Of a stretch of DNA of 64,000 nt, positions 4,350 to 40,306 are shown in pieces (positions within the stretch are counted from its first letter, which is position 1; each line of letters starts with the position of its first letter). This DNA comes from Candidatus Woesebacteria bacterium (GTDB taxonomy: Bacteria; Patescibacteriota; Microgenomatia; UBA8517): NCBI GenBank assembly GCA_016432525.1, contig CP066693.1, forward strand, positions 352,815 to 416,814, in the 5' to 3' direction. The position numbers and the translations under genes are program-made. The notes beneath the pieces are model-generated. The model had not been told where the DNA came from, searched no databases, and saw only the letters and a program-made list of their open reading frames with translations.

Positions 4350-4898
4350 TTACACCCTTGAACGGTCAATCTCAAAGTCAGGAGCAAACTTTGGATCCTG
4401 TGGACAGTTACCTCGCGTTATCGGATTTGAAACTTCTTCTCCTCTCTGATTCGCGATTATCACTTCCTCCACGCTTCTGTGCGGAATCCCCTCATTATCT
4501 ACAAACTGCAATTTGGTTCCAAAGATCATAGGCGTGAAATTGTGATTTGGCATTACAGGTACTACCTCACCATTAGGTCGACATTGGAAGGCCTTGACTG
4601 TATTGTCGTTATAAATCAACAGATTCACTCTGCCTTCAGGTATCATCCGAGTATCCGTACCTACGATGGTCTTCCCTGTATCAAGTTTGTCTTCCAGGGT
4701 CTGCATTGATTGCCAAAAATTGTCTCGATCAGCACTGAACTGTCTTGCAAGTTCGATCTCCGCTTTGTTCTGCGAAAGTTCGCCTTTAACACATGCCTCG
4801 ACAGTTTTATCTATTACTCCCCCTGCTTGTGCTTGGTATTCCCTCGCTGCTTCGTTGATTCCAGCGTTTTCTTTGACATTTCCGTCTTTGACACACAC
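4350..4898 (-). CDS. Hypothetical protein (182 aa), divergent from the helicase gene
   Basis: ORF with a GTG start (MCVKDGNVKENAGINEAAREYQAQAGG...). G+C-rich. Shares the 160-bp intergenic region with the helicase. No known motif. Confidence 0.5.
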   Translation of the reverse strand: MCVKDGNVKENAGINEAAREYQAQAGGVIDKTVEACVKGELSQNKAEIELARQFSADRDNFWQSMQTLEDKLDTGKTIVGTDTRMIPEGRVNLLIYNDNTVKAFQCRPNGEVVPVMPNHNFTPMIFGTKLQFVDNEGIPHRSVEEVIIANQRGEEVSNPITRGNCPQDPKFAPDFEIDRSRV

Positions 4899-5059
4899 AG
4901 ACCTTCTCCTTCTGACTCAATCTGACAAAGAACTTCCTTTCGGAATATTAAATTATACACTATGAGCTCATTTTGTGCTATCATACTGGCTATGCTTTTA
5001 CCGTGTAAACGGAAAAGCGCACATTAACAGTTGGGTTATTTAATACAAAGGAGTAAGAA

Positions 5060-8000: not shown

Positions 8001-9286
8001 TTCGATTGACGAACTGGGAAAAAGTCGAAAATACAATCACCGACCGCTTTATCACTACTGAAGGGGATGATGAGACCACTATTGCGAAAGCTACAGTAGT
8101 CGATATTCACGATGACGGCAAAGTCATGTTTGCTCTTGACCTTGGTCAAGCAACACTTGATATCTGCATCATCATATCGGTATATGGGATTAAGCTTCCC
8201 AAAAACTCAAGCGAATTTAAAATTGGAGAGCAAGCAACACTGAAAGTGTACCGTCGATCAAAAGCAAGCTCGTATGCAGATCTCCCTTCTCTTCCTTCGA
8301 AAGCTGTTTCGAAAATCAGCTCTGAGGAAAGACCAAACGAACTTTCGTGGAAACGAGGAGTGCTACGGTTTACAGGAAGAATGACATACGACAGACTCTA
8401 TGAGTTTAGAACAATTGCAGACAGGGATCTTGACTTCCAAAGGGCTTTAGAGAAACTGTACTGGCATTCAAATTTTGTGTACGCTGCACAATTCGTTGAC
8501 AGTGAGTTGTTTACCCATTTGCAAACAACTCTTGCGGTCGGTACTACTATCAACAACGCTATAGTTGTTGAAATAAACAACGGCGGAGTTGTTGTCGAAT
8601 TGGGTCGAGGACTCAAAGGATTTGTGCCCAGAAGCAAAATTATGGAAGGTCGTGGAAACCTCATCGACTTTGTCACTGTCGGTTCCACTGTACAGGTAAG
8701 GGTGCTTGAACATCGCATCGAACGGGCTCAACCTTTACTTGAAATCATTGGTGGAATTGTAAATCCACTTGAACAGCTTGTTGTTGGACGTACATACAAA
8801 GGCATTGTCGAAGAAGTCAATCAAAACGGAGTCTTTGTTAACTTGTCGCCGACAATCACTGGTCGTGTGAAGCACAATGAAGTTTATCGTGGAGGTACTA
8901 AAACAGAGGATTTGTTCAAGGCTGGAGACAATGTAATCGTGAAGGTTCTTTCTGTTCATCCCAGCAGACATAGCGTTGAACTCAGCATGAAAATTCCTGA
9001 ATACGATCCATCGGCAAAACTCAAGCAAGGGGCCATCGTTGAAGGAATTGTAGCAAGCCAACAAAGCTATGGATACTTTATTACCATAGCCATGGGTATC
9101 GATGGACTATTGCGTCACGAAAACATTCCAGAAGTAAGCACTGGTTTTCTTGGATTAGGCGGAAAAGCTAAGCCCAACATTGCAGTTGGTATGAAACTAC
9201 AAGTCAAAATCATCGCGATCGGTCCAGACCGCAAAAATCCAGCCAAAACCGTCTATGGTTTGGAGTATGTTCGTCAATTGAAGTAA
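5060..9286 (+). CDS. DEAH/RHA-family (HrpA-like) RNA helicase with N-terminal zinc ribbon, acidic linker and tandem C-terminal S1 RNA-binding domains (1408 aa)
   Basis: Motifs in order: Walker A GATGAGKT, motif II IVDEAHE, motif III SAT, motif V TNIAEASVTI, motif VI QRFGRVGR. WH/HA2-like segment YGALVRIFSYPPRLIDMLMAADDLGCSVEMATILPVI. N-terminal CKWPGC...CSYRN...CEKH. Acidic stretch EEEPEDLLEDEILEVEEPEE. Two S1-like OB folds (GRTYKGIVEEVNQNGVFVNLSPTITGRVKHNEV and GAIVEGIVASQQSYGYFITIAMGIDGLLRHENI). Strong SD aaaggag before the ATG. Confidence 0.8.
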   Translation: MTREWQAPCKWPGCTNKIGYSDCSYRNSLQYGFSRPEYCEKHQEEEQRMRKGVATPYFRIPRFIGEIQPGPLGHIKRSEKRVHISTDKASKFDKSRFGVTEEDIYRIATWFKDPNHRVLVATGATGAGKTIAVPYWFLYPPQKIVDDFGSDYFTRDGQILLTEPRIIALKKAITFLGELMGSSIGRGQDLGYSYSQEDKSDWRNAIDFTTDGKLVNWIVAGKISQYGFIIVDEAHEGSENIKIILRLLNERMSLYPNLKVVILSATIDTEEFQRYFAGQGASIIEFAGKARYDSKGNEILPPVRHFTTQDESLPYEDPTKLAKPLMQKAKEKAQWLVEEIVSGRKEWGDILILLHGKNPINQLVKDLQAWAGQEENLSRIVEVYPLYRTENDEEDLTAVADEDPSPGKIRIIVSTNIAEASVTIDSLVYEIETGVQIQPQFKAEIGANEYPVTLISRANATQRFGRVGRTKNGEVYTLYTEQQFNELFREQPLDVLERSNLEDVLLKVKAAGISNVQTGWLGNAPKEEIDRSTKQLVDSNILTAEGSLTSYGALVRIFSYPPRLIDMLMAADDLGCSVEMATILPVIKNDGTRRLLSWRFSWDAYTKRIAFKRHSALMAGCKDDMEFILKLYKAWGELPWLDQNQLRELSKEELNTLRKQWADIHFVNHKVLLVIAKDRDEALERLGVSTKEEGSRSINLSQISRVRTLLRSMLTETEVSAASNPYRYVADIEPQAGTLATCSLISDEQRAVKSDSWLEIPALEEETDGTFSRFFIDQVYPVGYRFAAKLEQQGDGFAWIKTTRNLTRAQALAQQTVTLAEEEPEDLLEDEILEVEEPEEASGISLADIPIQYWNVDCKQAVRTASSLVGEVIVEITDFYFEEGQVPVVIAEVVPQPEPFDVFVKRHRYSDEVTVEVREILQFEGDYSAALVVRDIETNLEVLVEPQDMSFTRQAQAVTQIPVGARLILNVENIDLETRRVRLTNWEKVENTITDRFITTEGDDETTIAKATVVDIHDDGKVMFALDLGQATLDICIIISVYGIKLPKNSSEFKIGEQATLKVYRRSKASSYADLPSLPSKAVSKISSEERPNELSWKRGVLRFTGRMTYDRLYEFRTIADRDLDFQRALEKLYWHSNFVYAAQFVDSELFTHLQTTLAVGTTINNAIVVEINNGGVVVELGRGLKGFVPRSKIMEGRGNLIDFVTVGSTVQVRVLEHRIERAQPLLEIIGGIVNPLEQLVVGRTYKGIVEEVNQNGVFVNLSPTITGRVKHNEVYRGGTKTEDLFKAGDNVIVKVLSVHPSRHSVELSMKIPEYDPSAKLKQGAIVEGIVASQQSYGYFITIAMGIDGLLRHENIPEVSTGFLGLGGKAKPNIAVGMKLQVKIIAIGPDRKNPAKTVYGLEYVRQLK

Positions 9287-9299
9287 CCCAGCTAGTTTC

Positions 9300-9320
9300 A
9301 CAGGTAGGCCCTGTTTTTTT
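9300..9320 (+). terminator. Putative rho-independent terminator after the helicase gene
   Basis: ACAGG-TAGGC-CCTGT stem-loop followed by TTTTTTT. A longer alternative pairing AGGCCCTG...CAGGGCTT is also possible. Confidence 0.4.
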
Positions 9321-9520
9321 AGATCAATATGATTCTAAAGAGCAGGGCTTTTCTATTTCTAAAATGGTTGTTGTGCAACTCTTAGAGGAAGTTAATCTTA
9401 TTTTTTATCAATACCCTCCAAATAACTACATAGTTGCTTCAAGGTTCGAATCCAAACTTACGGGTTAACACGGGCTAGAACGGATTAGTGCCATTCCGTC
9501 AATGGCTATAGGATATTTAG

Positions 9521-9591
9521 CTGCGGGATAGGGATTCGAACCCCAATATGCAGATCCAGATTCTGCTGTCCTACCATTAGACGATCCCGCA
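9521..9591 (-). tRNA. tRNA-Gln (anticodon CUG)
   Basis: Minus-strand sequence TGCGGGATCGTCTAATGGTAGGACAGCAGAATCTGGATCTGCATATTGGGGTTCGAATCCCTATCCCGCA folds as a cloverleaf. U1:A72 and G73 discriminator are typical of bacterial tRNA-Gln. Anticodon loop AUCUGGA. T-loop TTCGAAT. CCA is not encoded. Confidence 0.8.
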
Positions 9592-9676
9592 ATATAGCCA
9601 TATTTTACTCTAAATAGGCTTAATATGCTAATATACTTATATCGATTTGCAGCTTAAAAACCTAAGGAAGAAATCA

Positions 9677-9931: not shown

Positions 9932-10021
9932 CCATAACCTGACAGAAAAGGTATCATAGATATCGGCTCTGTCAGGATAATATTTCTTTCCAACTCAATA
10001 ATCTGTACAATTATTGAACAG

Positions 10022-10678
10022 GTGCCAAAAAAGCAAAAAAATCTAAAAACCTTTGTTCTTGCCTTAAGCGCTATAAGCCTTTTTTTATTTTTAATTCTTT
10101 CTTATTTTGTAAGTATTGATAGTCTTGCCTTAAACAATTTTGATCTCTCCCTTACTGTCAATCTTCAAAAGCTAATTCCCAAATCCTTTGACACAACTCT
10201 TTCATTTTTAAGCATTATTGGCACATTTGAAATAATCACTATTTTTTTGATTATTGCCCTAACCAAAATCAAATCCACCAAAAACAAAATAATAATCCTT
10301 GTTCTTTATGTTGTTGGTTCAAGCATTGAGCTAATTCAAAAACTTGCAGTTTATCACCCAACTCCTCCAGCAAATTTCTTTCGCTATAACTTAAGATTTC
10401 TCTTTCCAAGTGGTTTTGTCCAAACAGGTGACTCTTTCCCCTCAGGCCATGCTTTTCGAACAGTTTTTTTGCTCACAATAATTGGCTTTATTCTTCTTAC
10501 TAAAAAATACAAATCAGAAAATAACAAATACTTTCATTTTTTTATTTTGCTATTATTTTTAGTTGCCATGCTTATCTCAAGAGTAAGCTTAGGCGAGCAC
10601 TGGGCCACAGATGTAATAGGAGGAGCGCTTCTAGCTTTTAGTTTTTCCCTTATATCAGTATATAAATGTCTTATCTAA
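10022..10678 (+). CDS. PAP2-family membrane phosphatase (phosphatidic-acid / undecaprenyl-diphosphate phosphatase-like)
   Basis: Multi-TM protein with PAP2 signature residues GDSFPSGHA and HWATDVIGG. Confidence 0.65.
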   Translation: MPKKQKNLKTFVLALSAISLFLFLILSYFVSIDSLALNNFDLSLTVNLQKLIPKSFDTTLSFLSIIGTFEIITIFLIIALTKIKSTKNKIIILVLYVVGSSIELIQKLAVYHPTPPANFFRYNLRFLFPSGFVQTGDSFPSGHAFRTVFLLTIIGFILLTKKYKSENNKYFHFFILLLFLVAMLISRVSLGEHWATDVIGGALLAFSFSLISVYKCLI

Positions 10679-11310
10679 GCTTATTTTTTTTAGAATTTTT
10701 AATAATTTTCAAACTCTCACGCGTCCTACTTCAAAAACTTTTTAGTTTTTTCTTTAAAATAACCAAAAACGAAAAACTATCAATTTATATCATTGCAATT
10801 ATTTTCCTTCCAGGAACTTTTATTCACGAAATGTCTCATTTCTTGTTCGCTCTATTTCTTTTAGTAAAAACAGGCAGACTTAGAATCTTGCCTCAAATCG
10901 AAGGAAAAGAAATTCGCCTAGGGAGTTTAGAAATAGGGAAAACCGATATTTTAAGGCGAAACCTTATAGGAATTGCCCCAATGGTTATAGGAATTGCAAT
11001 TATAGTTACGCTTTTATATTTAATAACTCAAAATCACTCAAATCCTTTTTATGTTTTTTTAACTGCCTTTTCAGTTTTTGAAATCTCAAATACTATGTAT
11101 TCAAGCAAAAAAGATTTAGAGTTAGCACTACCTCTGATTATTCTTTTTATAATGCTTTCAGTTGTTTTATATATCTTAAAAGTCAAAATCTCAATCAACC
11201 TTTTTCAGATACTTTCAAACGAAAAGTTGACATACTTGCTAAAATTAGCAGATATATATTTAGGCTTGCCGATATTTATTAACTCTGCCCTCGCAATAAT
11301 TTTAAGATGA
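10666..11310 (+). CDS. Integral membrane protein with HExxH motif (putative membrane metalloprotease-like)
   Basis: FIHEMSHFLFALF, an HExxH embedded in a TM segment, in a polytopic membrane protein. Confidence 0.4.
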   Translation: MSYLSLFFLEFLIIFKLSRVLLQKLFSFFFKITKNEKLSIYIIAIIFLPGTFIHEMSHFLFALFLLVKTGRLRILPQIEGKEIRLGSLEIGKTDILRRNLIGIAPMVIGIAIIVTLLYLITQNHSNPFYVFLTAFSVFEISNTMYSSKKDLELALPLIILFIMLSVVLYILKVKISINLFQILSNEKLTYLLKLADIYLGLPIFINSALAIILR

Positions 11311-12413
11311 AAAACTTTGTAGATTTTATCCAATTTTCTTATAAAAATTTTGTAAGAAAAATCTTTTTTGCTTTCGATTCAGAAGCCATTCACGAATTCA
11401 TGCTCGATAATGGCGAATTTGTAGGGAAAGTGACACCATTAAAATTTATATTTAATTACAAAGATAAATCCCTAAATCAAGAAATTGCTGGAATAAAATT
11501 CGCCTCTCCAATAGGTTTGTCAGCAGGTTTTGACTACAAGGCAAAGCTTCCAAATGCCTTGCCCTTACTAGGTTTTGGTTTTGGCAGCCTGGGAACAATT
11601 ACAAATAAAGCCTATGAAGGAAATCCATTGCCGCGCTTGGGTCGCTTAGTTAAAACAAAATCTTTAATGGTAAACAAAGGTTTCAAAAACGAAGGAATAG
11701 ATAAAATTCTTAAAAAAGTTAAAAACCAAAAATTCAGCATTCCAATTGGGCTAAGTATCGGAAAAACAAACGAATCAAAAATGAATCAGAAAGAGGGGAT
11801 GGTAGATATCGTATCAGCTTTTAAAAAAGCAGAAAAATCAAAAACCAACTTTAGCTATTACGAACTAAACATAAGCTGCCCCAATCTTCTAGGGGGAGTT
11901 GAATTCTACTCACCCAAAAAACTAAATGATCTTCTAAAAGCAGTAATCGCGCTTAAACTCAAAAAACCTCTTTTTGTCAAAATGCCGATCTCAAAAACAA
12001 ATAAAGAAATTGATGAAATGCTAAAAGTGATCACAAAATTCAAAGTGGGAGCCGTAATTTTTGGAAATTTACAAAAAGACAGATCTGATAAAAGTTTTGT
12101 CAAAAGCGAGCTTGCAAAGTTTCCAATTGGCAATTTTAGTGGAATTCCAACCCAAAAAAGATCAAACGAATTAATTCATTTTGCTTATAAAAAATACGGC
12201 AAAAAAATTAAAATAATCGGCTGCGGGGGAGTATTTAACGCTAATGATGCCTATAAAAAAATAAAACTCGGGGCATCTTTGATTCAACTAATAACAGGCC
12301 TCGTTTTTGAAGGTCCATTTTTGCCAGCAAAAATCAATTTTGATCTTAAAAATTTACTTGAAAAAGATGGCTACAAATCCCTTCAAGATGCAGTCGGAAG
12401 TTTTAATAAATAG
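11307..12413 (+). CDS. pyrD: Dihydroorotate dehydrogenase family protein
   Basis: Active-site motif NISCPN. C-terminal GCGGVFNANDAYKKIKLGASLIQ, a TIM-barrel FMN-binding tail typical of DHODH/DHPD. Confidence 0.6.
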   Translation: MKNFVDFIQFSYKNFVRKIFFAFDSEAIHEFMLDNGEFVGKVTPLKFIFNYKDKSLNQEIAGIKFASPIGLSAGFDYKAKLPNALPLLGFGFGSLGTITNKAYEGNPLPRLGRLVKTKSLMVNKGFKNEGIDKILKKVKNQKFSIPIGLSIGKTNESKMNQKEGMVDIVSAFKKAEKSKTNFSYYELNISCPNLLGGVEFYSPKKLNDLLKAVIALKLKKPLFVKMPISKTNKEIDEMLKVITKFKVGAVIFGNLQKDRSDKSFVKSELAKFPIGNFSGIPTQKRSNELIHFAYKKYGKKIKIIGCGGVFNANDAYKKIKLGASLIQLITGLVFEGPFLPAKINFDLKNLLEKDGYKSLQDAVGSFNK

Positions 12414-13188
12414 GTGAAGCCGAGGATGAAACAGTTTTATTTATTTGTCTAAATCCTATTAAGATCACTCTAATTTTTTGAATATCAAACCTCACATTAT
12501 TCAAATCCAACAATGCATTTTTTAGCATGCTTCTTGCAGATTGCAAGGCTTGAGTATTGGCACTCATTTTAGAAGCATCTCCACCATCTGGGGTAAGATT
12601 AGAAACTGTATCTATCGCATTTTGTGCTTGAGTTTTAGCGTCAATAAGTTTTGTTTGAATCTCAGATATGATTGAATTAGTAGAAGATATATCTTTTCCG
12701 TTTTTTTGTTTTGCACTATCAATTAATTTTTGAATTTTTGTCACAAGTGCTGATAAATCATCTGAAATCTCCAAAATTCTATCAGCTGAAGCTACAATTC
12801 TAAATTTTGGAATAAAAAGCCAATAAACTCTATATTCTGTCAAAATTGATTTTTTGTCAGTAAGCAAAATTTCCGGGTCAGTATCAGCATCTATTTTAGC
12901 TTTCAAATTAGTCAAAGAAGTAATTTCAGATTGTATTTGGGATAAGAAAGCACTTTTTTGTGAATCAGATATTTTTTTCATAGCTTGTATTCTTGTTATT
13001 AGATTATTTAATGAAGTTATTCTTCTTTCTATTTCTTGATCAGCACGATCTGTTAAAAGTTCTTGTCTTTTTTGACCAGACCTATCTTTCAAATTAGAAG
13101 CAGGAGAACCTGTTTGCGCAAAAGCATTAGAAGCAATAACAAAACTACTCAAAATAAAAAATCCTGATACTATTATTTTTTTATTCAT
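12403..13188 (-). CDS. Secreted coiled-coil protein (hypothetical)
   Basis: Signal peptide MNKKIIVSGFFILSSFVIASNAFA followed by heptad-like Q/K/L/I-rich sequence. Confidence 0.5.
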   Translation of the reverse strand: MNKKIIVSGFFILSSFVIASNAFAQTGSPASNLKDRSGQKRQELLTDRADQEIERRITSLNNLITRIQAMKKISDSQKSAFLSQIQSEITSLTNLKAKIDADTDPEILLTDKKSILTEYRVYWLFIPKFRIVASADRILEISDDLSALVTKIQKLIDSAKQKNGKDISSTNSIISEIQTKLIDAKTQAQNAIDTVSNLTPDGGDASKMSANTQALQSARSMLKNALLDLNNVRFDIQKIRVILIGFRQINKTVSSSASPIY

Positions 13189-13189
13189 A

Positions 13190-13498
13190 TTACTGTACAG
13201 TAATTGCCTTATCGTTTAATCCTGCATCTACATTATTCAAATCAGTATTCAAATCATTCATTTTTTGATCAATCTTTTGCGAATCGCTATCTAGTCCATC
13301 TCCAAGCGGGGAAGAGGTGGCAACAGGTTGGTTTGGAGTGGTTTGCGAATTTTCTCCTGAATTTACTTGTTGGCTAACTTGATTGTTAGATTGATTTGTA
13401 TTCATGCTATATTTCAATACAAAAAAAGTAACCAAAGCAAAAAGAGCAAGCCCAACAACTAAAATTACAGCACCAAATCCACCAAACTTATCACGCAT
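13190..13498 (-). CDS. Small membrane-anchored protein (hypothetical)
   Basis: N-terminal TM (GAVILVVGLALFALVTFFVL) then a low-complexity N/Q/S-rich tail. Confidence 0.4.
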   Translation of the reverse strand: MRDKFGGFGAVILVVGLALFALVTFFVLKYSMNTNQSNNQVSQQVNSGENSQTTPNQPVATSSPLGDGLDSDSQKIDQKMNDLNTDLNNVDAGLNDKAITVQ

Positions 13499-13570
13499 AA
13501 ATGTATTTAAACATACAGATCAAGATAGTGTCAACTTTCAAATCTCTCTCTTTTATCTTAAAATATGTGA

Positions 13571-14458
13571 ATGAAAAATAATTCGTATCAGAAAATTCTA
13601 AATTTTTCCAAAAGCTCGGGAGTGTCAGTAAAACAAATTCTTGATTTCCTTTTTTCAAAAAATGATAAAAGTTTAGCTAAAAGTATTGTTGATGACATCA
13701 AAAAAGAAAAATTTGAAAACAGCAATCTAACATTTAAAAATTTCAAATTCCAAGATTATTTCTTTGAATTTCTAAAAGACGAAAATTTTAAAAATTCGTA
13801 TCTAGTTCTCCAAAAATATCAAAAATACTTTCCCAAACCCAATAGAAAACTAGATCAGTTTTTAGCTAAACCTCAAACTGTTGCAAAAAGAGCCTCCCTT
13901 TTGAATTTTCTAAATGATTTAGAAAGCAAAAAAATTTTATTTTTGGGAGATGACGATTTTGGATCAGTTGCATCATCAAAGATAAATAATGCGGAGCAGG
14001 TTACAGTTTTAGATATAGATAACAGAATTCTTCATTCGATTAAAAATATTTCAAATTTAGAAAAATTAAACATAGAGACCTTCAAATATGATGTAAAATT
14101 TCCTCTTCCCGATAAATTCACTAAAAAATATGATGTAGTTTTTGCTGATCCTCCATACACTCCAAAAGGTTTTAATTTGTTTTTATCAAGGGCAATCGAC
14201 GCCTTGGATTTGAGAAATAATTCAGCCCGAATTTATATTTGTTTTGGAAATTCTGATCGAGCCCGAGAAAGATTCTTGCCTATTTATGATATTTTACAAA
14301 AATCAGGACTTATGATTAGATTTATTTTTGACAAATTTAATGTTTATCAAGGAGCAGACTCTATTGGAAATGCAAGTAGTCTTTTTATTTGTGACGTGAC
14401 TCCTAAAACCAAAAGCTTACTGAAAGGAAAAATTAACGATGACATTTATACAGGATAA
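13571..14458 (+). CDS. DUF43/BpsA-like aminopropyltransferase (putative polyamine synthase)
   Basis: LFLGDDDFGS (the GDDD motif of the DUF43 family) and FADPPYTP (DPPY motif). Overlaps the downstream AdoMetDC gene by 20 nt. Confidence 0.55.
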   Translation: MKNNSYQKILNFSKSSGVSVKQILDFLFSKNDKSLAKSIVDDIKKEKFENSNLTFKNFKFQDYFFEFLKDENFKNSYLVLQKYQKYFPKPNRKLDQFLAKPQTVAKRASLLNFLNDLESKKILFLGDDDFGSVASSKINNAEQVTVLDIDNRILHSIKNISNLEKLNIETFKYDVKFPLPDKFTKKYDVVFADPPYTPKGFNLFLSRAIDALDLRNNSARIYICFGNSDRARERFLPIYDILQKSGLMIRFIFDKFNVYQGADSIGNASSLFICDVTPKTKSLLKGKINDDIYTG

Positions 14459-14780
14459 TTTACCACTCATATATCATTTTATCGTCAAAGTTAAATTTGA
14501 AGAAGGTTTTCAAGATTCTGAAAAATTCATCGAAGAGGTTGGAACTTCTATATCCAAAATTTTAGATATCACTATTGTTAAAAAAGACTTTCATAAATTT
14601 GAGCCCCATGGAATTACTTACATTTTTATTCTTTCTCAATCTCATTTGGTGATTCACACATATCCAGAATATAATCTAATTCATATAGATCTTTTAAGTT
14701 GCAAAAAACTAACAAAGGATTTGTTTGAAGATGCACTTAAAGCAGTATTCCGAAATCAAAAATTTATGTTATACTACTGA
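14439..14780 (+). CDS. speH: S-adenosylmethionine decarboxylase proenzyme (small SpeH-type, pyruvoyl-dependent)
   Basis: ILSQSHLVIHTYPE matches the AdoMetDC self-processing/active-site block (ESHxSIHTWPE). About 113 aa as expected. The residue before the Ser is Q rather than the usual E. Confidence 0.6.
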   Translation: MTFIQDNLPLIYHFIVKVKFEEGFQDSEKFIEEVGTSISKILDITIVKKDFHKFEPHGITYIFILSQSHLVIHTYPEYNLIHIDLLSCKKLTKDLFEDALKAVFRNQKFMLYY

Positions 14781-14784
14781 CATC

Positions 14785-15471
14785 ATGGCTTCCAAAAGAA
14801 AAACAACTAAAACCAAAACACCTCAAAAAGTAAAACTACCAAAAGTCAATTTCAATTTTAAAAACTTAAAAGAAAAATTCCCAAAAATAAAAATCAATAA
14901 AAAATATATAGGCGGTGCTCTTTTAGCAATAATCCTAGGAATAACTTTTTTCCGTTTCAAAAATTTGGTAGTTGCAGCCATGGTAAATGGTGAGCCTATT
15001 TCTAGATTCAAAATAATTTCAGAATTAGAAAAACGCTCAGGAAGCCAGGCTCTTGATTCAATCATAACTCAAACATTAATTTCTCAAGAAGCAAAAAAAC
15101 AAAATATTAATGTAACTCAAACGGAAATTGACAACCAGATAAACTCTTTAGAGAACAGCTTAAAATCCCAAGGTCAAGACTTAAATAGCGCTCTAGCAAC
15201 GCAAGGTATGACAAAGGAGGACCTAATAACCCAGATTTCTCTACAAAAAATGGTCGAAAAATTAGTCGGAAAAGATATAGAAATCAAAGATCAGCAAATT
15301 GATGATTACATAAAGGCAAATAAAGACACTTTTCCAAAAGACGAAAAACCCGAAGATATTAGATCAAAAGTCAAAAATCAGCTTTTTCAACAAGCTCTTT
15401 CTCAAAAATTCCAAACTTGGATAACAGATCTTAAATCAAAGGCCCACATCACGTATTTCATCAAATACTAA
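14785..15471 (+). CDS. SurA-N/PrsA-like periplasmic chaperone domain protein
   Basis: Basic N-terminus, one TM, then MVNGEPISRFKIISELEKRSGSQALDSIITQTLISQEAKK, resembling the SurA N-terminal chaperone domain. Confidence 0.45.
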   Translation: MASKRKTTKTKTPQKVKLPKVNFNFKNLKEKFPKIKINKKYIGGALLAIILGITFFRFKNLVVAAMVNGEPISRFKIISELEKRSGSQALDSIITQTLISQEAKKQNINVTQTEIDNQINSLENSLKSQGQDLNSALATQGMTKEDLITQISLQKMVEKLVGKDIEIKDQQIDDYIKANKDTFPKDEKPEDIRSKVKNQLFQQALSQKFQTWITDLKSKAHITYFIKY

Positions 15472-15484
15472 AAACTCTCTCATT

Positions 15485-15712
15485 TTGAAGAAAAAGCAAA
15501 AATTTTACGAGCATAAAGGTCGATCCGTTATTAAAGCGTTAACTTTTCGCTTCTTAATTTTATGCTCAGACAGTATTATAATTTTCGCTATAACTAAAAG
15601 GTTAGATTTAACCATAGGTGTGATCACACTTTCAAATGTTGCAAGTACACTAATTTATTTTTTGCACGAAAGGTTATGGAACCACATTCATTGGGGAAAG
15701 GTTTTACAATAA
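15485..15712 (+). CDS. Small membrane protein (DUF2061-like)
   Basis: Two hydrophobic helices (FRFLILCSDSIIIFAI, IGVITLSNVASTLIYFL). Confidence 0.35.
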   Translation: MKKKQKFYEHKGRSVIKALTFRFLILCSDSIIIFAITKRLDLTIGVITLSNVASTLIYFLHERLWNHIHWGKVLQ

Positions 15713-15715
15713 AAC

Positions 15716-16468
15716 ATGAATATTTTTCAATCAATAATTCTCTCAATCGTTGAAGGAATAACAGAATTTTTACCGATCTCATCAACCGGCCACTTGATTC
15801 TCACAAGTCAAATTCTAAAAATCGCTCAAACTGATTTTGTAAAAACTTTTGAAATTGCTATTCAACTTGGCGCAATTATGTCAGTAGTTTTTCTTTATTG
15901 GCAAAAAATTATTAAAAGTAAAACCCTCTGGAAAGAAATTCTTGCAAGTTTTATTCCAACTGCAGTAATTGGCTTTATTTTTTTTAAATTAATCAAAAAT
16001 TATTTACTTGGAAATTCGCATGTGGTAGTTATCTCTCTAATAATAGGTGGTATAGCCCTCATTATTTTTGAAAAATATATAAAACTCAAAAAGAAAAAAC
16101 CAACTCTCAAGGATTATTTTTTAATTGGAATCTTCCAGGCAATTGCTGTAATTCCTGGAGTCTCAAGAGCTGCTGCTACTATAATTGGAGGAGAACTGGT
16201 AGGTCTTGATAAAAAAGAAGCTGTCGAATTTTCGTTTTTGCTTGCAGCTCCAACCATGTTTGCGGCTACAGCCCTCGATCTGGTCAAAAGTGGTTTCAGC
16301 TTTACAGGAAACGAAATTTTAATCATGGCAGTTGGTTTTATTGGAGCATTTGTTACAGCCACTCTAACTATTAAAGCATTCATAAAATTTATTCAGAAAA
16401 ATAATTTTGTAGGTTTTGGAATCTACAGAATTATCGTCGGCCTCATTTTCCTGCTATACTTGGGCTGA
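15716..16468 (+). CDS. uppP: Undecaprenyl-diphosphatase
   Basis: N-terminal VEGITEFLPISSTGHL and multi-TM BacA/UppP architecture. Confidence 0.8.
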   Translation: MNIFQSIILSIVEGITEFLPISSTGHLILTSQILKIAQTDFVKTFEIAIQLGAIMSVVFLYWQKIIKSKTLWKEILASFIPTAVIGFIFFKLIKNYLLGNSHVVVISLIIGGIALIIFEKYIKLKKKKPTLKDYFLIGIFQAIAVIPGVSRAAATIIGGELVGLDKKEAVEFSFLLAAPTMFAATALDLVKSGFSFTGNEILIMAVGFIGAFVTATLTIKAFIKFIQKNNFVGFGIYRIIVGLIFLLYLG

Positions 16469-28335: not shown

Positions 28336-28411
28336 GGCCCCATCGTCTAGTGGTCTAGGACGCCAGGTTCTCATCCTGGTAACCTGGGTTCGACTCCCAG
28401 TGGGGTCACCA
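28336..28411 (+). tRNA. tRNA-Glu (anticodon CUC), CCA encoded
   Basis: GGCCCCATCGTCTAGTGGTCTAGGACGCCAGGTTCTCATCCTGGTAACCTGGGTTCGACTCCCAGTGGGGTCACCA. 7-bp acceptor, D-loop AGTGGTCTA, anticodon loop UUCUCAU, T-loop TTCGACT. Confidence 0.8.
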
Positions 28412-30663: not shown

Positions 30664-31554
30664 TTAAGGCAAGCTTTCACAGGCAATCCCATTTCCGACA
30701 CCTTTTGCGCTGTCAAGCCGCATGGGATCATTTGTTGCGCTGAATCCACAACATTGAAAGAAGCTTTGTGCTTCTGCATGAGTTGAGAAGTCGGAGCAAT
30801 CTTTGTCGGGACCTGAACAAGAGTATTTACAGCTTCTGCCACCGTTTGTCGGAGCTGTCGGAGTCGATTGAGTAGTTTGCGATCGACATGCACTCCAAAG
30901 ACCTTTATTGGCGCTTCTAGCAGCGTTTTGGGCCTCGAGAAATTGATTTTGATACTTCACATCGGGAGGGTAAGTATAAGAATTGGCGTAGCCTTCACGA
31001 ACTAAAGAATCATTTACGAAAGTGTCTCCGACATATACATAGCGGGGCAATCGACCATACCGATCTGTCTCCGACACATCTTTTTCGAATCTTACCCCTT
31101 TGCCTTCGACCAATTGCCGATTTCGAGCTGTAGCCTCGCTTGCAAAGCATTCATTTTGAGTGAGCTCGGGAGTATCAATTCCGATATACCGCACACGCCT
31201 TCCATCGGAAAGCTCAATTGTGTCTCCGTCTATTACTCTTGAAACAGTAAAGACTTCCTGTTTGTCGGAACCTCCGACGCCGATGTTTTCTCCGACAGTT
31301 GTTGTCGGAGTTTGTGTCGGCAAAATCTCCGACTTAATGTCGGAAGTCGGAGGAGTATTATTGTCGGCAACTTTTGTCGGGAGGGTTGCTCCAAATCCAA
31401 AAAAAGATAAAACAAGCAAACCAATAAATCCAATTGTTAATTGTTTTCGGCTCAGATGTCTCTTCAATAGCCTTGAAAACAAACTTGGTTTAGCAATTCC
31501 CATAAGCAAGCCAATTGGAGAAAGCAAAAAAAGTGTTAGAAATAGGCCGTTCAT
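30664..31554 (-). CDS. Membrane-anchored thermonuclease (SNase-like) with C-terminal Excalibur Ca-binding domain
   Basis: SNase motifs VIDGDTIEL, RYIGIDTPE, RYGRLPRYVYV. C-terminal DPMRLDSAKGVGNGIACE (Excalibur DxDxDGxxCE-like). N-terminal TM helices. Start uncertain: ATG 31554 (MNGLF...), 31503, or track start 31623. Confidence 0.7.
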   Translation of the reverse strand: MNGLFLTLFLLSPIGLLMGIAKPSLFSRLLKRHLSRKQLTIGFIGLLVLSFFGFGATLPTKVADNNTPPTSDIKSEILPTQTPTTTVGENIGVGGSDKQEVFTVSRVIDGDTIELSDGRRVRYIGIDTPELTQNECFASEATARNRQLVEGKGVRFEKDVSETDRYGRLPRYVYVGDTFVNDSLVREGYANSYTYPPDVKYQNQFLEAQNAARSANKGLWSACRSQTTQSTPTAPTNGGRSCKYSCSGPDKDCSDFSTHAEAQSFFQCCGFSATNDPMRLDSAKGVGNGIACESLP

Positions 31555-31631
31555 ACTAGGCTGAATTATACCAGAAATGATGACAAGGAGTCGGAGGTAA
31601 AAGAGACAGGGAGTCACTACCATAAAAAGTA

Positions 31632-31859
31632 ATGGGAAAACCTATTACTCATAAACATATATTAGAAAAATTTGGCCGAAAGGTCCAACAAACTCGCAAG
31701 AGCAAAGGAGTTACCCAAGACGCATTGGCAGCTAGTATTTCTATGGACCGAACATATATTGGATTGATAGAACGAGGAGAAAGGAATCCGACAATAAGGA
31801 CACTTTATAAGATCTCTAAATCATTAAAGGTAGAGGCGAAGGAGTTACTTCCCTTTTAA
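31632..31859 (+). CDS. XRE-family helix-turn-helix transcriptional regulator (Cro/CI-like)
   Basis: KGVTQDALAASISMDRTYIGLIERGERNPTIRTLYKISKSL is a classic HTH_3. Confidence 0.75.
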   Translation: MGKPITHKHILEKFGRKVQQTRKSKGVTQDALAASISMDRTYIGLIERGERNPTIRTLYKISKSLKVEAKELLPF

Positions 31860-32302
31860 GCTTCGTTTGGAACTATATAATTTATCTGCGGAACTTCATT
31901 GATTCCCCCAAAATCTTTATGTTTTGTTTGTGCAACTTCGGTTCGAGTTACAAAGAACGGCTGAGAGGAACGATGCTTTGTTGCTACCAGTGTGATTATT
32001 CTTACCTCTTCCTTTGAGAGAACATAGTTTGGATTTTGAATCAATTTTGCGTGAGTATTGGCTATCACTTTATATGCAATATTATTAGCAAGCTCTCCTA
32101 CAAGTCCTTGAAAGTAGTCTATTTTGTCCGAAAACCAATCTTTTTGAGCATACTTTTCGTACATAGATGTTCGATGTCCATTTAACCCTGCCCTCTCTAT
32201 CGCACTATTTAAGCTATAACCCTGCATTAAAAAAGGCCTCATCTCATCAAGCCACCTTTGGTATTCTTCATCTGTAACTTTAGGGCGGCCCATATAAGAC
32301 AT
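31856..32302 (-). CDS. Phage-like HTH protein (terminase small-subunit-like N-terminus), hypothetical
   Basis: MSYMGRPKVTDEEYQRWLDEMRPFLMQGYSLNSAIERAGL resembles the MGRPxK...HTH N-termini of phage small terminase/DNA-binding proteins. Only 14 nt separate its ATG from the divergent downstream gene. Confidence 0.35.
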   Translation of the reverse strand: MSYMGRPKVTDEEYQRWLDEMRPFLMQGYSLNSAIERAGLNGHRTSMYEKYAQKDWFSDKIDYFQGLVGELANNIAYKVIANTHAKLIQNPNYVLSKEEVRIITLVATKHRSSQPFFVTRTEVAQTKHKDFGGINEVPQINYIVPNEA

Positions 32303-32316
32303 ATCGTAAGTTTACG

Positions 32317-33381
32317 ATGTGGTATCATCTAGCGGAAATGGCAAACTTGCAAGATTATCAACTATTTTATGCTCTCGCCAACGGAAGGGCTATAGATACC
32401 GCTACTTTAATTGAAGAGTATGAACAAATTAAGCCACTTGAAGGGGATGCCTTCTTTGAAAAATATGGTTTAGGAAACATTAACGGTATAACTCTTTATC
32501 CTTATGAAAGGTTAAAAGGATACGAGATAGTTTTAGATGTTCTGGAAAGCCATAATCCTACTCATTTTAGAGAAATACATAAAGGTACACCATATTACTT
32601 CATGGCTTGGCTGTCGATTCAAATGGAAGATTATGAGAAGGGAGTCTTTTACATTGATACTTCAATAAGCGAAGATTTGAGATTGCTTGGTTCTGCCTGG
32701 GACATTAACGCTTCTGAGCCTACGCCAGGAATTAAATTTACTTTGCTTATTGATGCAAACATTCAAGTGGCTTCAGACGCCGCAATTAAACTTGAGACAT
32801 TGGTTAGCCAAGAGTTAATGGCTTTTAGTAGTGCTGCACAGGTGAGTTTAAGCAAGGATCTCTTTATCCAAAAATTTATTAAAGATTCTGGGCTCTTTAG
32901 AAATGGTACTTTCAGGACGATCGTCACAAGCTTGTATAGTTATATTTTGGAGTTTCAGTCAAGACGAACACAGTTAAAAATAAGAAGCTCAGAAGAAGGC
33001 TCTATCGAACCATTTTTGACTCATTTATTCAAAGGATGTGTCATCCTTGAGTCCTTGCTCAAGCTAAAAGCTCCTGGAGATACTGCTCAAACATTGGATC
33101 CTGCTATCAGAGCTCATAACGCCACTTTAGGAATTGACTTAGACACTTTTCCGAGAAAAACATCTTTTGAACAAGTAATAAACAATATGGTCAACTTGAA
33201 GGCACAAAACGCTGATTATAAGAATGTTTGTTTTGCCACAGCTTATGGGATGAGAAACACAACTGGGCATCAGCTTGCTTGGCCAGATGTATTTAGAACA
33301 GCACCTGAAACATATGAACAAGCATACGAATCAATACTCGGGGCAATTTTTTGGTCAATTTACAAACTTTGGGTAGAGTAA
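32317..33381 (+). CDS. HEPN-like (Rx4H motif) Abi-type protein, hypothetical (354 aa)
   Basis: C-terminal YGMRNTTGHQLAW carries an R-x4-H HEPN signature. No other motif recognised. Confidence 0.45.
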   Translation: MWYHLAEMANLQDYQLFYALANGRAIDTATLIEEYEQIKPLEGDAFFEKYGLGNINGITLYPYERLKGYEIVLDVLESHNPTHFREIHKGTPYYFMAWLSIQMEDYEKGVFYIDTSISEDLRLLGSAWDINASEPTPGIKFTLLIDANIQVASDAAIKLETLVSQELMAFSSAAQVSLSKDLFIQKFIKDSGLFRNGTFRTIVTSLYSYILEFQSRRTQLKIRSSEEGSIEPFLTHLFKGCVILESLLKLKAPGDTAQTLDPAIRAHNATLGIDLDTFPRKTSFEQVINNMVNLKAQNADYKNVCFATAYGMRNTTGHQLAWPDVFRTAPETYEQAYESILGAIFWSIYKLWVE

Positions 33382-33471
33382 AATTTTACATATGTTCAAG
33401 AACATTTTTCCTTCAATCGAAACAGCCTTAGAGATGGAACCAGAAGAACTTGCCCCTTTTGTACTGCGACA

Positions 33472-34092
33472 TTGCAAAAGTTAGAACGCATAAATAGGTA
33501 CAACTACACTTTAAGTTCAGGTTCGGACATTAGAGATTATGCAGGAGATCATTTAAGTGAATTTCAAAAGAGATTAACGGAAGCATTTATTTGGCTTGAA
33601 AGAGAAATGTTTATTGCTCCTAAGCCAGATGAGACAGGAGAATGGCGATATATCACGAGAAGAGGAGAGAGAGTATTACAAAGTGAAGACTTTGCCTCAT
33701 ATGCGAAGGAGTCTCTCTTGCAATCTGACCAATTACATCCTGTTTTAGTTAGAAAAGTAAAACAGCTCTTTTTGCGAGGTGATTACGATACTGCAATTTT
33801 TCAGGCCTTTAAGGCAGTCGAAGTAGCAGTTAGGAAGGCGGGAAAATACGAGAAAAGTGATATTGGAGTTCCTCTGATGAGAAAGGCTTTTAACCCCAAT
33901 ACAGGTACTCTTACAAATAGCCACTCTGAGTCTTCGGAGAAAGAAGCAATGAGTAATCTATTCGCAGGGGCAATAGGATTATTCAAAAACCCTGCGAGCC
34001 ATAGAGATATTGAAGGGATAACTCCCGAAGAAGCGAGTGATTATATCAGGGTTGCTAACTGTTTAATAAAAATGGTCGATTCTGAGAAGTAA
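33472..34092 (+). CDS. TIGR02391/Abi_C-like (HEPN-related) protein
   Basis: NLFAGAIGLFKNPASHRD corresponds to the conserved F.G....RNP.AH block of the TIGR02391/Abi_C family, here with K in place of R. TTG start. Confidence 0.5.
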   Translation: MQKLERINRYNYTLSSGSDIRDYAGDHLSEFQKRLTEAFIWLEREMFIAPKPDETGEWRYITRRGERVLQSEDFASYAKESLLQSDQLHPVLVRKVKQLFLRGDYDTAIFQAFKAVEVAVRKAGKYEKSDIGVPLMRKAFNPNTGTLTNSHSESSEKEAMSNLFAGAIGLFKNPASHRDIEGITPEEASDYIRVANCLIKMVDSEK

Positions 34093-34207
34093 CAATTGAG
34101 CGCTTTTAACAGTCACAGGATTAAAATCGCGTGCAATTTCTTCTAAAATGTCTGAGCCAGTGTTATAATTCGCACTACTATCTCGTTATTACGAAAAGGA
34201 GGTTGAA

Positions 34208-34583
34208 AATGTCTCTATTTGTATGTCCTGTTTGTCCATGGAGAGGCAGAGATCATAAGTACCGTCATGCTAAAGCTGGCGAGACAACTATCAGATTCGA
34301 CGATGGCCATATTTGGACTTTTCCGAATTTGATCTTACATTACATTCATGACCATAAATGGCTACCGCCAGAAAATTTTGTGAAAGATGTAATGGAAGGA
34401 CACCTCTCTTTCTCGCCTTTTGGCAATCAAGAGGTGGTTCCTCAGAGAGTTGGATACCTAGCTGAAAGTGACTTTGTACAAGGAGAGATACCAAAGGGTC
34501 TTGTCGACAGACTTCAGAATCTGATTGAACAAGTAAGCCAACACGACGATGATCTCAGGTATTACGGTCCAGGCGAAAAATAA
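34208..34583 (+). CDS. Zinc-ribbon protein (hypothetical)
   Basis: Strong SD AAAGGAGG then ATG. MSLFVCPVCPWRGRDHKYRH...HYIHDHKW Cys/His cluster. Confidence 0.5.
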
Positions 34584-34590
34584 TTCATAT

Positions 34591-34628
34591 AAACCCGATG
34601 CAATTTCTCGTTCATCGGGTTTTTCTTT
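34591..34628 (+). terminator. Rho-independent terminator
   Basis: AAACCCGATG...CATCGGGTTT is a 9-10-bp stem followed by TTTTCTTT. Confidence 0.6.
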
Positions 34629-34653
34629 AAGAAATGCTAAAATATACTCTGTT

Positions 34654-36976: not shown

Positions 36977-37746
36977 TTGAAAATGAATCTCGGTCTTGTT
37001 TCGACCCGCTGGGACGACGAGGTGATGCAAATCTTAAGAGCTGAATTCTACGGAAAATACACAGAAGAAGAGTTTCTTGAAATGATGAGGAAAGATATGG
37101 AAAACGACTCGCAGTCGTTGATCAACTCCTCTGAAATTCAAAGAGCTACCGATGTATTTTTCGTTCGGGAAGAAGAAATTGTGGTTGCCATCCTGATGCT
37201 CAAGTATTACAAATGGGCATTACTAGGTCCGCAACTCTTCTTTGAGGTGCTGTCCGACAGTCAAATAACAACGGCAATTGCATTAAAGCCGTTCAATCAG
37301 CTTGTGGTTTCTGATGGGCTACATGCTGGCGAACTGGCATATTTTTGGGTAAATCCAACAAGAGAGGTGAGGGTATAGGTAGAAATCTGTTTGAATATAC
37401 AGCAGATGAGTTTAGGCGTTTGCTCCAAGCAAATGATCTAGCTTTTACTCTATCTCTCGGCAACAAATCTCATTTGCACGCAGGACGAGATCTCAAAACC
37501 CTCCTACTTGGCCACGAAAGGCAAGTAAACGGCGTCGACGAGCAAACGGGTAAAATACGAGTCATGAGTACTCCGCTAGCGTTATCTATTGTGGAGAACC
37601 AACTTGGTTTTCCTACAAGCGAGATTTCGTCTAGTCAAGGGTCTATCGCAACTGAAGTGTTAGCTAAGAAATTTGGCATGACCTTTCGAGGATATTCTCG
37701 TAATCTTAGCTTATTGTTTGCAACGACCATCGGTAATCTTTCGTAG
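36977..37746 (+). pseudogene. GNAT-family N-acetyltransferase interrupted by a frameshift
   Basis: Frame 1 ends ...ELAYFWVNPTREVRV* at 37378. Frame 3 continues from 37345 with KRGEGIGRNLFEY. Together these rebuild the GNAT motif A (V.P..RG.GIG), so the shift lies near 37357-37360. Confidence 0.55.
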
Positions 37747-39412: not shown

Positions 39413-40306
39413 TTATAGAAGTACTGGTCCACAAAATATCTGCGGAAGCCTAAGCCTAAAGAATCCAAAGTCAAAAGTTACAAAAGTTGTTTTGCATTGG
39501 AATGTAAATCTCGGGAAAGGTGGAAAGCTTGGAAATGGAAATCCAGATGGCTTTGGTGTCTGTGTAGGGGTGGCTGTTGGGCTAGCAGAAGGTGTCGCAG
39601 TGGGAGTCGCTGTAGGCGTTGAGGTAGGAGTAGCTGTTGGTGTTGCAGTAGGAGAAGCAGAAGCTGTTGGACTAGCAGAAGGTGAAGGTGTCGAAACAAT
39701 AATTGATGAATTTCTTGGAGTAGATGTAGTCAATAATTCAAAATCTGTTGAATTATCCTCTGTATCTTGTCCATGCCCGCCTGTATCATCAATTTTTCTC
39801 TGAATACTACCACCAGCAATTGGAGAAGGAGCATCACTTGCTTCTTTATCAGTTGCTGTGCCCATCCCAACTTTATCTATCAGTGTTGTGCCTGCGTCAC
39901 TATACAAAAGTACCGAATTGTTATCGGCAATAGTTCCACTGTTGGTTGATGAATAAACTTCATCTGTTATCACAGAGCCTGTATATCCAGTTGGGTGTGT
40001 CACCAAAAAATATCCATGGGAAGCAATAGTCCCACTCATACTCGCAACTAAATTTGAAGAACTAGAAGCACTTTCGCTTTCTCTTTTAAGTCTCCACCCC
40101 GACAAATCAACAGCACTATTAGTAGGATTATAAAGCTCTACAAATTCATCGTTTGCAGTGACTCCAGCAACTTGCACTTGTGATATAACAACATGACTAG
40201 CAGCAGCGCGAACAGAAGATTCAGCCTTAAAAATGAGTGCACCAAACACAAATAATCCTAAAAGCCAGGGCAAGTTAGCTTTCTTAAACATATAGCTATA
40301 ATTCAT
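39413..40306 (-). CDS. Lamin-tail-domain (LTD) secreted protein with Pro/Thr/Ala tandem-repeat tail
   Basis: Signal peptide. LTD core DEFVELYNPTNSAVDLSGWRL. C-terminal (A/S)PT(A)TPT repeats. Confidence 0.65.
   Translation of the reverse strand: MNYSYMFKKANLPWLLGLFVFGALIFKAESSVRAAASHVVISQVQVAGVTANDEFVELYNPTNSAVDLSGWRLKRESESASSSSNLVASMSGTIASHGYFLVTHPTGYTGSVITDEVYSSTNSGTIADNNSVLLYSDAGTTLIDKVGMGTATDKEASDAPSPIAGGSIQRKIDDTGGHGQDTEDNSTDFELLTTSTPRNSSIIVSTPSPSASPTASASPTATPTATPTSTPTATPTATPSASPTATPTQTPKPSGFPFPSFPPFPRFTFQCKTTFVTFDFGFFRLRLPQIFCGPVLL
39555..39675. repeat. Short tandem repeat (6/12-nt periodicity) encoding the PT-rich linker
   Basis: Repeated ggtgtcgcagtgggagtcgctgtaggcgttgaggtaggagtagctgttggtgttgcagtagga-type units, inside the LTD gene. 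Confidence 0.55.

Follow-up and report, generated by a model that had tools for sequence, protein, structure and literature searches.

We analysed a stretch of 64,000 nucleotides (nt) from a Candidatus Woesebacteria genome, called the window hereafter, in which three consecutive open reading frames (ORFs), here ORF1, ORF2 and ORF3, are encoded on the + strand between positions 32317 and 34583. We favour the reading that a serine-recombinase island carries these three genes as cargo, each inherited independently and not as part of a co-evolved system, with ORF1 being a stand-alone predicted HEPN ribonuclease (RNase) that belongs to a large undescribed family, and we assign this reading a probability of roughly 0.6. 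ORF2 is a member of the Ymh family and ORF3 of the DUF7919 family. An earlier note on this DNA had proposed an abortive-infection module here, and we found all three ORFs on the + strand where it had placed them. The interval from ORF1 to ORF3 was read from the letters of the window; protein identifiers such as P0001 and identifiers of genome or contig loci such as L012 are labels of our homologue collection.

In the genome of this tiny groundwater bacterium, the three ORFs sit 2-6 kb from a large serine recombinase linked to a tRNA-Glu gene. A large serine recombinase is a mark of a mobile element, and the setting of the ORFs is a recombinase-associated island. Conserved co-occurrence and gene order across genomes, by which a module would be recognized, were not found for the three families. 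The genomic context of ORF1 was sampled with eight relatives from the protein collection and 69 loci from species genomes. A Ymh-like gene was encoded within 5 kb of the ORF1 relative in one of 74 non-redundant loci (L062), 3 kb away and on the opposite strand. A tblastn search with ORF2 and ORF3 against the context loci collected by then recovered only the loci of their own families, with no DUF7919 gene near relatives of ORF1 or Ymh. The other two families were likewise absent from the three loci of the Ymh subfamily and the one DUF7919 locus that were examined. A three-gene module of toxin, regulator and antitoxin is therefore not supported. The roles that had been suggested for ORF3 as a partner or antitoxin, and for the two HEPN genes as a toxin/regulator duo, are not supported either, since the families do not co-occur in these loci and no conserved partner was found. 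ORF3 is a separately translated and terminated Cys/His protein with no demonstrable link to ORF1 or ORF2. The ORF1 stop codon and the original ATG of ORF2 (33392) are separated by 10 nt, which suggests that these two genes are probably co-transcribed.

In L062, which belongs to a Desulfovibrionaceae metagenome-assembled genome (MAG), the ORF1-family gene was found at 4623-5804 (+) and the Ymh gene, with the motif FRNPTAH, at 8856-9641 (-).

ORF1 and its family

The features of ORF1 are as follows (aa, amino acids; x, any residue):

32338..33381, + strand: ORF1, 347 aa, of an unannotated family, with a TPR-like helical N-terminal domain and a HEPN-like C-terminal domain
32578..32601, + strand: HKGTPYYF motif, residues 81-88, where the TPR-like hairpin begins; H81, K82, G83, P85 and Y87 invariant in 33 homologues
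32893..33378, + strand: C-terminal HEPN-like domain, residues 186-347, from predicted models
33049..33063, + strand: ESLLK, an Ex3[KR] acidic motif (E238-x3-K242) in predicted helix 2; E238 invariant in 33 sequences
33253..33270, + strand: RNTTGH, an Rx4H motif (R306, N307, H311) that closes predicted helix 3 and reaches into the start of the following loop

The start codon of ORF1 is likely the ATG at 32338 and not the alternative ATG upstream at 32317. The NCBI record P0001, a hypothetical protein from a Candidatus Woesebacteria MAG with 100% identity to ORF1, has the same start. The earlier note had described a protein of 354 aa ending with MRNTTGH. This motif is real, although it is internal (residues 305-311), 36 residues ahead of the C-terminus of a protein that is likely 347 aa long.

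The AlphaFold2 model of the whole protein was all-helical with two domains (predicted local distance difference test, pLDDT, 92.6; predicted template modelling score, pTM, 0.91), and residues 186-347 modelled alone were again all-helical (pLDDT 92.3). Two independent comparators ranked HEPN proteins as the top structural matches of the C-terminal domain. HEPN domains are described as four-helix up-down bundles that consist of two alpha-hairpins and in many cases carry an insert between helices 2 and 3, with an Rx4-6H motif at the end of helix 3 in which a polar residue follows the Arg, and with an Ex3[KR] motif in helix 2 (PMC3710099). The four predicted helices of ORF1 comprise residues 190-214, 224-241, 294-309 and 324-346, with a helical insert between the second and the third. 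E238-x3-K242 is placed in helix 2, R306 and N307 close helix 3, H311 lies in the next loop, and a long helix 4 follows. All four hallmarks of the published description were thus located at the expected secondary-structure positions, and on these models ORF1 carries a HEPN-type C-terminal domain. The predicted fold, the Rx4H motif and the Ex3[KR] motif were all present, while a significant match to a curated profile was not obtained. The earlier assignment of ORF1 to HEPN had been staked on the predicted fold and on conservation of the Rx4H spacing in homologues, and it stood on both.

A bare Rx4H motif is a weak lead, because 11 of the 55 ORFs of at least 120 aa in the window contain one by chance, and the weight comes from its conservation; the stricter RNxxxH was found among these ORFs in ORF1 only. 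We aligned 33 members of the family with identities down to 26%. Invariant in this alignment were H81, K82, G83, P85, Y87, D113, G233, E238, R306, N307, H311 and Y326, with position 238 being E or D across the wider family. RNxxxH was invariant in the 33 aligned homologues and in all 65 alignable members from the 69 genome loci, and was present in 181 of 184 family members of at least 300 aa. These genome loci were retrieved by the HKGTPYYF pattern, and conservation of that motif among them is by construction.

No match to ORF1 was found in Pfam, NCBIfam, PADLOC or PHROGs, and profiles of the full-length protein and of the domain retrieved nothing significant from the PDB sequences. TPR_2 and TPR_8 gave weak matches in 11-12 of the 33 family members. 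The family is nevertheless large. A word-indexed search returned 59 homologues, and every name given by their sources was hypothetical protein. When 1.84 billion representatives were searched exhaustively with a profile, 1031 relatives were returned at E <= 1e-3, 319 of them at E <= 1e-30, and the family comprises more than 1000 clusters at 50% identity across bacteria and archaea.

One relative, P0030 (394 aa), keeps only the C-terminal HEPN-like half, and its N-terminal half holds NucS_C, a domain of PD-(D/E)xK-type nuclease fold. This replacement of the N-terminal domain indicates a HEPN half that behaves as a module of its own, and a domain swap of this kind is typical of conflict systems.

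The pattern scan of 185,579 species genomes gave 69 ORF1-family matches, with hosts among Patescibacteria, Bacteroidota, Desulfobacterota, Planctomycetota, Acidobacteriota, Paenibacillus and several archaeal phyla. Spirosoma sp. KNUC1025, Desulfosarcina cetonica and Paenibacillus nicotianae are cultivable hosts with a homologue. The family is patchy, horizontally spread and without a fixed partner. BLAST clustering of the ORFs within 3 kb at about 74 loci revealed no conserved partner. The largest common neighbour cluster consisted of DNA methylases, some of HsdM type, at seven loci, followed by NYN-domain proteins at three independent loci and serine recombinases at three independent loci and in the window. 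When 141 immediate neighbours were surveyed with Pfam and PADLOC, again no family dominated; they included parts of restriction-modification (R-M) systems (ResIII, N6_N4_Mtase, Eco57I, Methylase_S, type ISP, HsdR), NYN proteins and integrases besides common housekeeping genes. Such a patchy and partner-less spread with an occasional R-M or mobile context fits the pattern described for HEPN proteins of the abortive-infection (Abi) type and for those linked to R-M systems.

At L012:4533-5998 the closest relative of ORF1 (79% identity) is followed after 5 nt by a protein that reaches the DUF5677 threshold exactly; the next protein matches HNH_5 weakly, and the two stand in place of Ymh and DUF7919. 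We checked these two genes as possible analogues of ORF2 and ORF3 and found them to be unrelated. The same contig carries a fragment of a serine recombinase and a homologue of an XRE-family helix-turn-helix (HTH) protein of the window (43% identical). With the HTH gene and the recombinase fragment shared and the downstream genes different, the type of island seems to be conserved while the cargo after ORF1 differs.

ORF2 and ORF3

The features of ORF2 and ORF3 are as follows:

33392..33484, + strand: orphaned 5' fragment of ORF2, 30 codons from ATG 33392 to a TAG stop, encoding MFKNIFPSIETALEMEPEELAPFVLRH, the conserved N-terminus of the family
33468..33476, + strand: site of a 1-nt deletion, CATTTG to CATTG, seen as a single-base gap in a DNA alignment with loci L008 and L009
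33472..34092, + strand: ORF2 as annotated, 206 aa from a TTG start, a Ymh/TIGR02391 HEPN protein without its first 27 residues
33985..34002, + strand: KNPASH, Lys variant of the Ymh Rx4H motif
34196..34202, + strand: Shine-Dalgarno sequence AAGGAGG, 6 nt ahead of the ORF3 ATG
34209..34583, + strand: ORF3, 124 aa, DUF7919, from ATG 34209, with the knuckle C6-x2-C9-x6-H16-x3-H20
34591..34629, + strand: hairpin and U-run resembling an intrinsic terminator, after ORF3 (free energy dG -13.9 kcal/mol, z -3.6)

ORF2 belongs to Ymh, with 93 bits against PF09509 (Hypoth_Ymh; cut-off 25, 1.6e-26) and 77.4 bits against TIGR02391 (cut-off 39.45, 9.6e-22). Abi_C (PF14355) gave no match at E <= 0.1, PF09509 alone being reported. 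Of the proposed likeness to TIGR02391 and Abi_C, the first part was thus confirmed above cut-offs, while the second holds at superfamily level only. The HMMER comparison with Pfam that had been recommended returned PF09509 and not Abi_C for ORF2, and no significant HEPN-clan match for ORF1.

The earlier note had correctly seen a Lys in place of the catalytic Arg, in FKNPASH at 33982-34002, and had suspected an inactive copy. The suspicion was not borne out by the relatives. ORF2 lacks the canonical RNPxAH and carries KNPASH, and [FY]KNPxSH was present in 116 of its 120 closest homologues, with FRNPTSH in two and FRNPTAH in a distant Ymh protein. A Lys in 116 of 120 sequences points to a subfamily trait under selection and not to decay. 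K199, N200, P201, S203 and H204 were invariant in 25 aligned subfamily sequences, as was E144-x3-R148 in the helix upstream of the motif. An N-terminal region, about 110 aa long and without a Pfam model, is also conserved in the subfamily. This is a Patescibacteria-rich subfamily that uses K-N-P-x-S-H.

What does indicate impairment of the ORF2 copy in the window is an N-terminal frameshift, which had been missed. Intact homologues are about 231 aa long and cover 99-100% of the repaired ORF2, whereas the window holds no reading frame of this full length. P0063 is an example of an intact Ymh protein of the Lys type. The repaired reading, VLRHLQKLERINRYNY, agrees with the family consensus. The annotated 206-aa product is 100% identical to P0060. 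The segment that is cut off from it, the first 27 codons, holds the invariant residues P7, E10, E19 and L25, and no Shine-Dalgarno sequence was found ahead of the annotated TTG. From the loss of these residues together with the missing ribosome-binding site, ORF2 of the window would probably be inactive or truncated, and we consider the gene probably a recent pseudogene with at best a truncated product. Programmed -1 frameshifting was rejected as an explanation, as there is no slippery heptamer at CAT-TGC and a simple T deletion accounts for the lost consensus.

Ymh is described as a HEPN family with a catalytic motif, occurring solo or fused to paraMORC, AbiJ-NTD or AbiTii, and in R-M operons (PMC3710099). 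Three loci of the ORF2 subfamily, which differ in their neighbours, fit the solo, R-M or mobile contexts typical of Ymh: a DNA methylase and a sigma-like protein in the first, a ResIII helicase and a Mu-F-like protein in the second, and a serine recombinase, LexA-like proteins, a transposase and SMODS in the third. The subfamily differs from canonical Ymh by its Lys for Arg and by the N-terminal region, and represents a natural experiment on the HEPN catalytic motif.

ORF3 matched PF25535 (DUF7919) with 61.1-61.2 bits (cut-off 27, 1.5e-16), which places it in this family. The match is confined to the C-terminal half of the model (positions 58/62-126 of 126), and both the CxxC...HxxxH knuckle and the C-terminal 60 residues of ORF3 fall outside it. 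A conserved block reads WTFPNLILHYIxDHKWLPPE. The only close homologue in the protein search was P0322 (58% identical), encoded on a 2.6-kb contig without relatives of ORF1 or ORF2. It keeps C6, C9, H16, H34, H44 and H49, with position 20 being H or C (Cys in P0322). A metagenome pattern scan yielded no further DUF7919 relatives of ORF3, and we found no literature on DUF7919. ORF3 had been called a zinc ribbon rich in CxxC and His. It is a Cys/His protein with one CxxC, followed by H16-x3-H20, and does not have the two CxxC knuckles around one zinc that define a zinc ribbon; it plausibly contains a small CCH(H/C) metal knuckle. The strong Shine-Dalgarno sequence and the terminator of its own that had been ascribed to ORF3 were both confirmed. 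The terminator was missed by a consensus scan because of its long loop, and in RNA folding none of 200 shuffled sequences folded as well.

ORF3 has its ribosome-site and start context, GGAGGTTGAAAATG, in common with an ORF at 36977-37378 (repeat D8, at 34198 and 36972).

Function of ORF1 and competing explanations

By analogy, ORF1 is best read as a solo predicted HEPN RNase of Abi type that is sometimes encoded beside R-M genes and recombinases. Single-protein HEPN Abi systems have been classified before, namely the lactococcal AbiD/AbiD1, AbiF, AbiJ, AbiV and AbiU2 (Anantharaman et al. 2013, PMC3710099). Like these, ORF1 is a solo gene whose product combines a C-terminal HEPN domain with Rx4-6H and a family-specific N-terminal helical domain, is found on a mobile element or beside R-M genes, and is predicted to be an RNase released by a trigger. 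Unlike them, it has a distinct N-terminal TPR-like hairpin with HKGTP[YF]YF and no sequence similarity to the lactococcal families detectable with Pfam or PADLOC, and its family is prominent in Patescibacteria and archaea rather than in Firmicutes.

The best structural matches to the C-terminal domain were HepT of HepT/MntA (HEPN-MNT, type VII; PDB 7ae2, 5yep, 7bxo, 8xdj) and minimal archaeal HEPN proteins (2hsb, 1wol). ORF1 shares with them the Rx4H at the end of helix 3. It differs in that no MNT nucleotidyltransferase adjoins ORF1 or the relatives examined, and compared with HepT and minimal HEPN proteins it is 2.5 times longer owing to the extra N-terminal domain, at a sequence identity of only 5-11%. 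The family also resembles C6orf70/DUF4209, a TPR-fused HEPN family of R-M-related operons (PMC3710099 Table 1), in its combination of TPR and HEPN and in an occasional R-M neighbourhood. Membership of ORF1 in that family is not supported, as none of the 33 members matched PF13910 even at E <= 10.

If ORF1 acts as such an RNase, we infer that its copies would dimerise via their HEPN domains, as other HEPN RNases do, and, going by HEPN biochemistry (PMC3710099), the dimer would build a composite, metal-independent RNase site. H311 would serve as general base, R306 and N307 would stabilise the transition state, and E238 would assist. The enzyme might be held off by its TPR-like N-terminal domain, with the invariant HKGTP[YF]YF pocket, until a trigger binds; candidate triggers are a small ligand or a protein of a phage or mobile element. 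The released RNA cleavage could then lead to cell arrest (abortive infection) or to stabilisation of the island (element addiction). An active solo HEPN RNase would add to the HEPN conflict repertoire a sizeable family without a Pfam, NCBIfam, PADLOC or PHROGs model, and would provide a testable candidate immune or addiction gene for bacteria of the candidate phyla radiation, whose defence arsenal is poorly known. HEPN solos are already a well-known theme and ORF1 would be no departure in kind; the new part is a family with a distinctive N-terminal domain.

Several observations weigh against this reading. An hhalign comparison of ORF1 with the Ymh profile gave nothing in the HEPN region. In a permissive Pfam scan of the 33 family members (E <= 10) the only contact with a curated HEPN-clan family was DUF4145 in one of the 33, and this single match (E 0.028) leaves the sequence-profile link of ORF1 to any curated HEPN family not significant. 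Many ORF1-family loci lie amid housekeeping genes. ORF1 and ORF2 may be functionally paired in a local, non-conserved way. An error in the assembly could also explain the frameshift in ORF2. The 206-aa product is recorded in NCBI and Logan sources alike, a hint that the reads carry the deletion.

A more far-reaching proposal, which we regard as tentative and rather doubtful, is that the ORF1 family is a new defence family of widespread single-protein immune sensor-effectors, in which the HKGTP[YF]YF pocket of the TPR-like domain would sense a phage component or a nucleotide signal and thereby release the activity of the HEPN RNase. If true, it would be of particular relevance for Patescibacteria and archaea, in which known defence systems are few.

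The family might instead be a housekeeping factor in RNA processing or RNA binding, or a non-catalytic TPR scaffold that uses RNxxxH for ligand binding, with no part in defence. RNA-processing enzymes also contain HEPN domains (PMC3710099), several of the loci lie amid genes for ribosomal proteins, GTPases, chaperonins and sigma factors, and ORF1 matched neither PADLOC nor PHROGs. A patchy distribution across unrelated phyla, with 69 matches in 185,579 species genomes, is however unexpected for a core function. The recurrence beside R-M subunits, NYN nucleases, integrases and serine recombinases, the fusion of one member to a NucS_C nuclease-fold domain, and the position of ORF1 of the window inside a recombinase island also speak against such a role, which we judge unlikely.

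Slightly less probable again is that ORF1 is the toxin of a two-gene pair whose antitoxin is a fast-evolving small neighbour too diverged for BLAST clustering, for example the 148-aa gene at 31856-32302 or the XRE HTH gene at 31632-31859. Small ORFs in the same direction are tightly coupled at some loci, P0008 has an HTH gene directly beside it, and an XRE HTH homologue is found near the closest relative in L012. There and in the window, however, the HTH gene is 0.5-2 kb off and not adjacent, the relatives in L001 and L005 lack any co-directional neighbour, and the largest neighbour cluster, at 7 of about 74 loci, consists of DNA methylases.

The abortive-infection or toxin-antitoxin module of the earlier note, with ORF1 as HEPN toxin, ORF2 as inactive K-substituted regulator and ORF3 as Cys/His partner or antitoxin, could draw on the shared strand and tight spacing of the genes (the ORF1 stop being just ahead of the original ORF2 ATG), on two HEPN-type products and on the mobile island around them, but it is largely refuted by the failure to find the three families together elsewhere, and with ORF1 relatives standing alone between divergent or convergent neighbours at several loci, ORF3 following a 116-nt gap with its own Shine-Dalgarno sequence and terminator, Lys being the norm in the ORF2 subfamily and ORF2 of the window being frameshifted, we consider it highly improbable. 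Recognising a chance juxtaposition, as in the cargo-gene reading that we prefer, keeps a false 'HEPN-HEPN-Zn' system out of defence catalogues.

The island and its neighbourhood

The following features of the island lie to the left of the interval:

28336..28411, + strand: tRNA-Glu(CUC), found with ARAGORN; Rfam 60.8 bits
28371..30062, - strand: large serine recombinase/integrase; Resolvase 3.4e-11, phrog_95 integrase 4.1e-26
31632..31859, + strand: XRE-family HTH protein, 75 aa, HTH_3 1.5e-13, given for context only

The order of genes up to the interval is tRNA-Glu, serine recombinase, membrane-anchored staphylococcal-type nuclease, XRE HTH and the 148-aa gene. The 3' end of the recombinase ORF on the - strand crosses the tRNA gene, and the C-terminus of the recombinase is thus encoded antisense to tRNA-Glu(CUC). 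This reading of the recombinase ORF through the tRNA gene suggests integration into or beside the tRNA, and the island probably integrated at tRNA-Glu(CUC). In a search for direct repeats, no att-like copy of the tRNA end that would delimit the island was detected within 12 kb. An Rfam scan made for RNA elements of the interval gave the tRNA alone. The stretch that holds the interval had a slightly raised G+C content, at 0.37-0.41 versus about 0.34 across much of the remaining window.

The 148-aa gene (31856-32302, - strand) is divergent from ORF1, with start codons 14-35 nt apart. It had no family match except a weak one to PADLOC PDC-M01B (0.0053), and no homologue of it was found in other ORF1 loci. 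The nuclease gene (30664-31623, - strand) encodes a 319-aa protein with a staphylococcal-nuclease domain between an N-terminal membrane segment and a Cys-rich C-terminal tail, and matches the PADLOC candidate C3a212 (SNc+LTD) with 3.2e-28. A separate lamin-tail-domain protein is encoded at 39413-40306 and contains an internal degenerate repeat (39548-39684).

To the right of the interval lies a gene of the histone-deacetylase family. Since the ORF3 terminator falls within the longer ORF, this gene probably starts at ATG 34654. Further downstream, two ORFs of 133 aa each (36977-37378 and 37345-37746) lie on the same strand in different frames with a 34-nt overlap and without a Pfam match, and may represent another frameshifted gene. 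The first 9 kb of the window had a G+C content of 0.39-0.44, against a markedly low 0.29-0.31 at positions 10000-16000.

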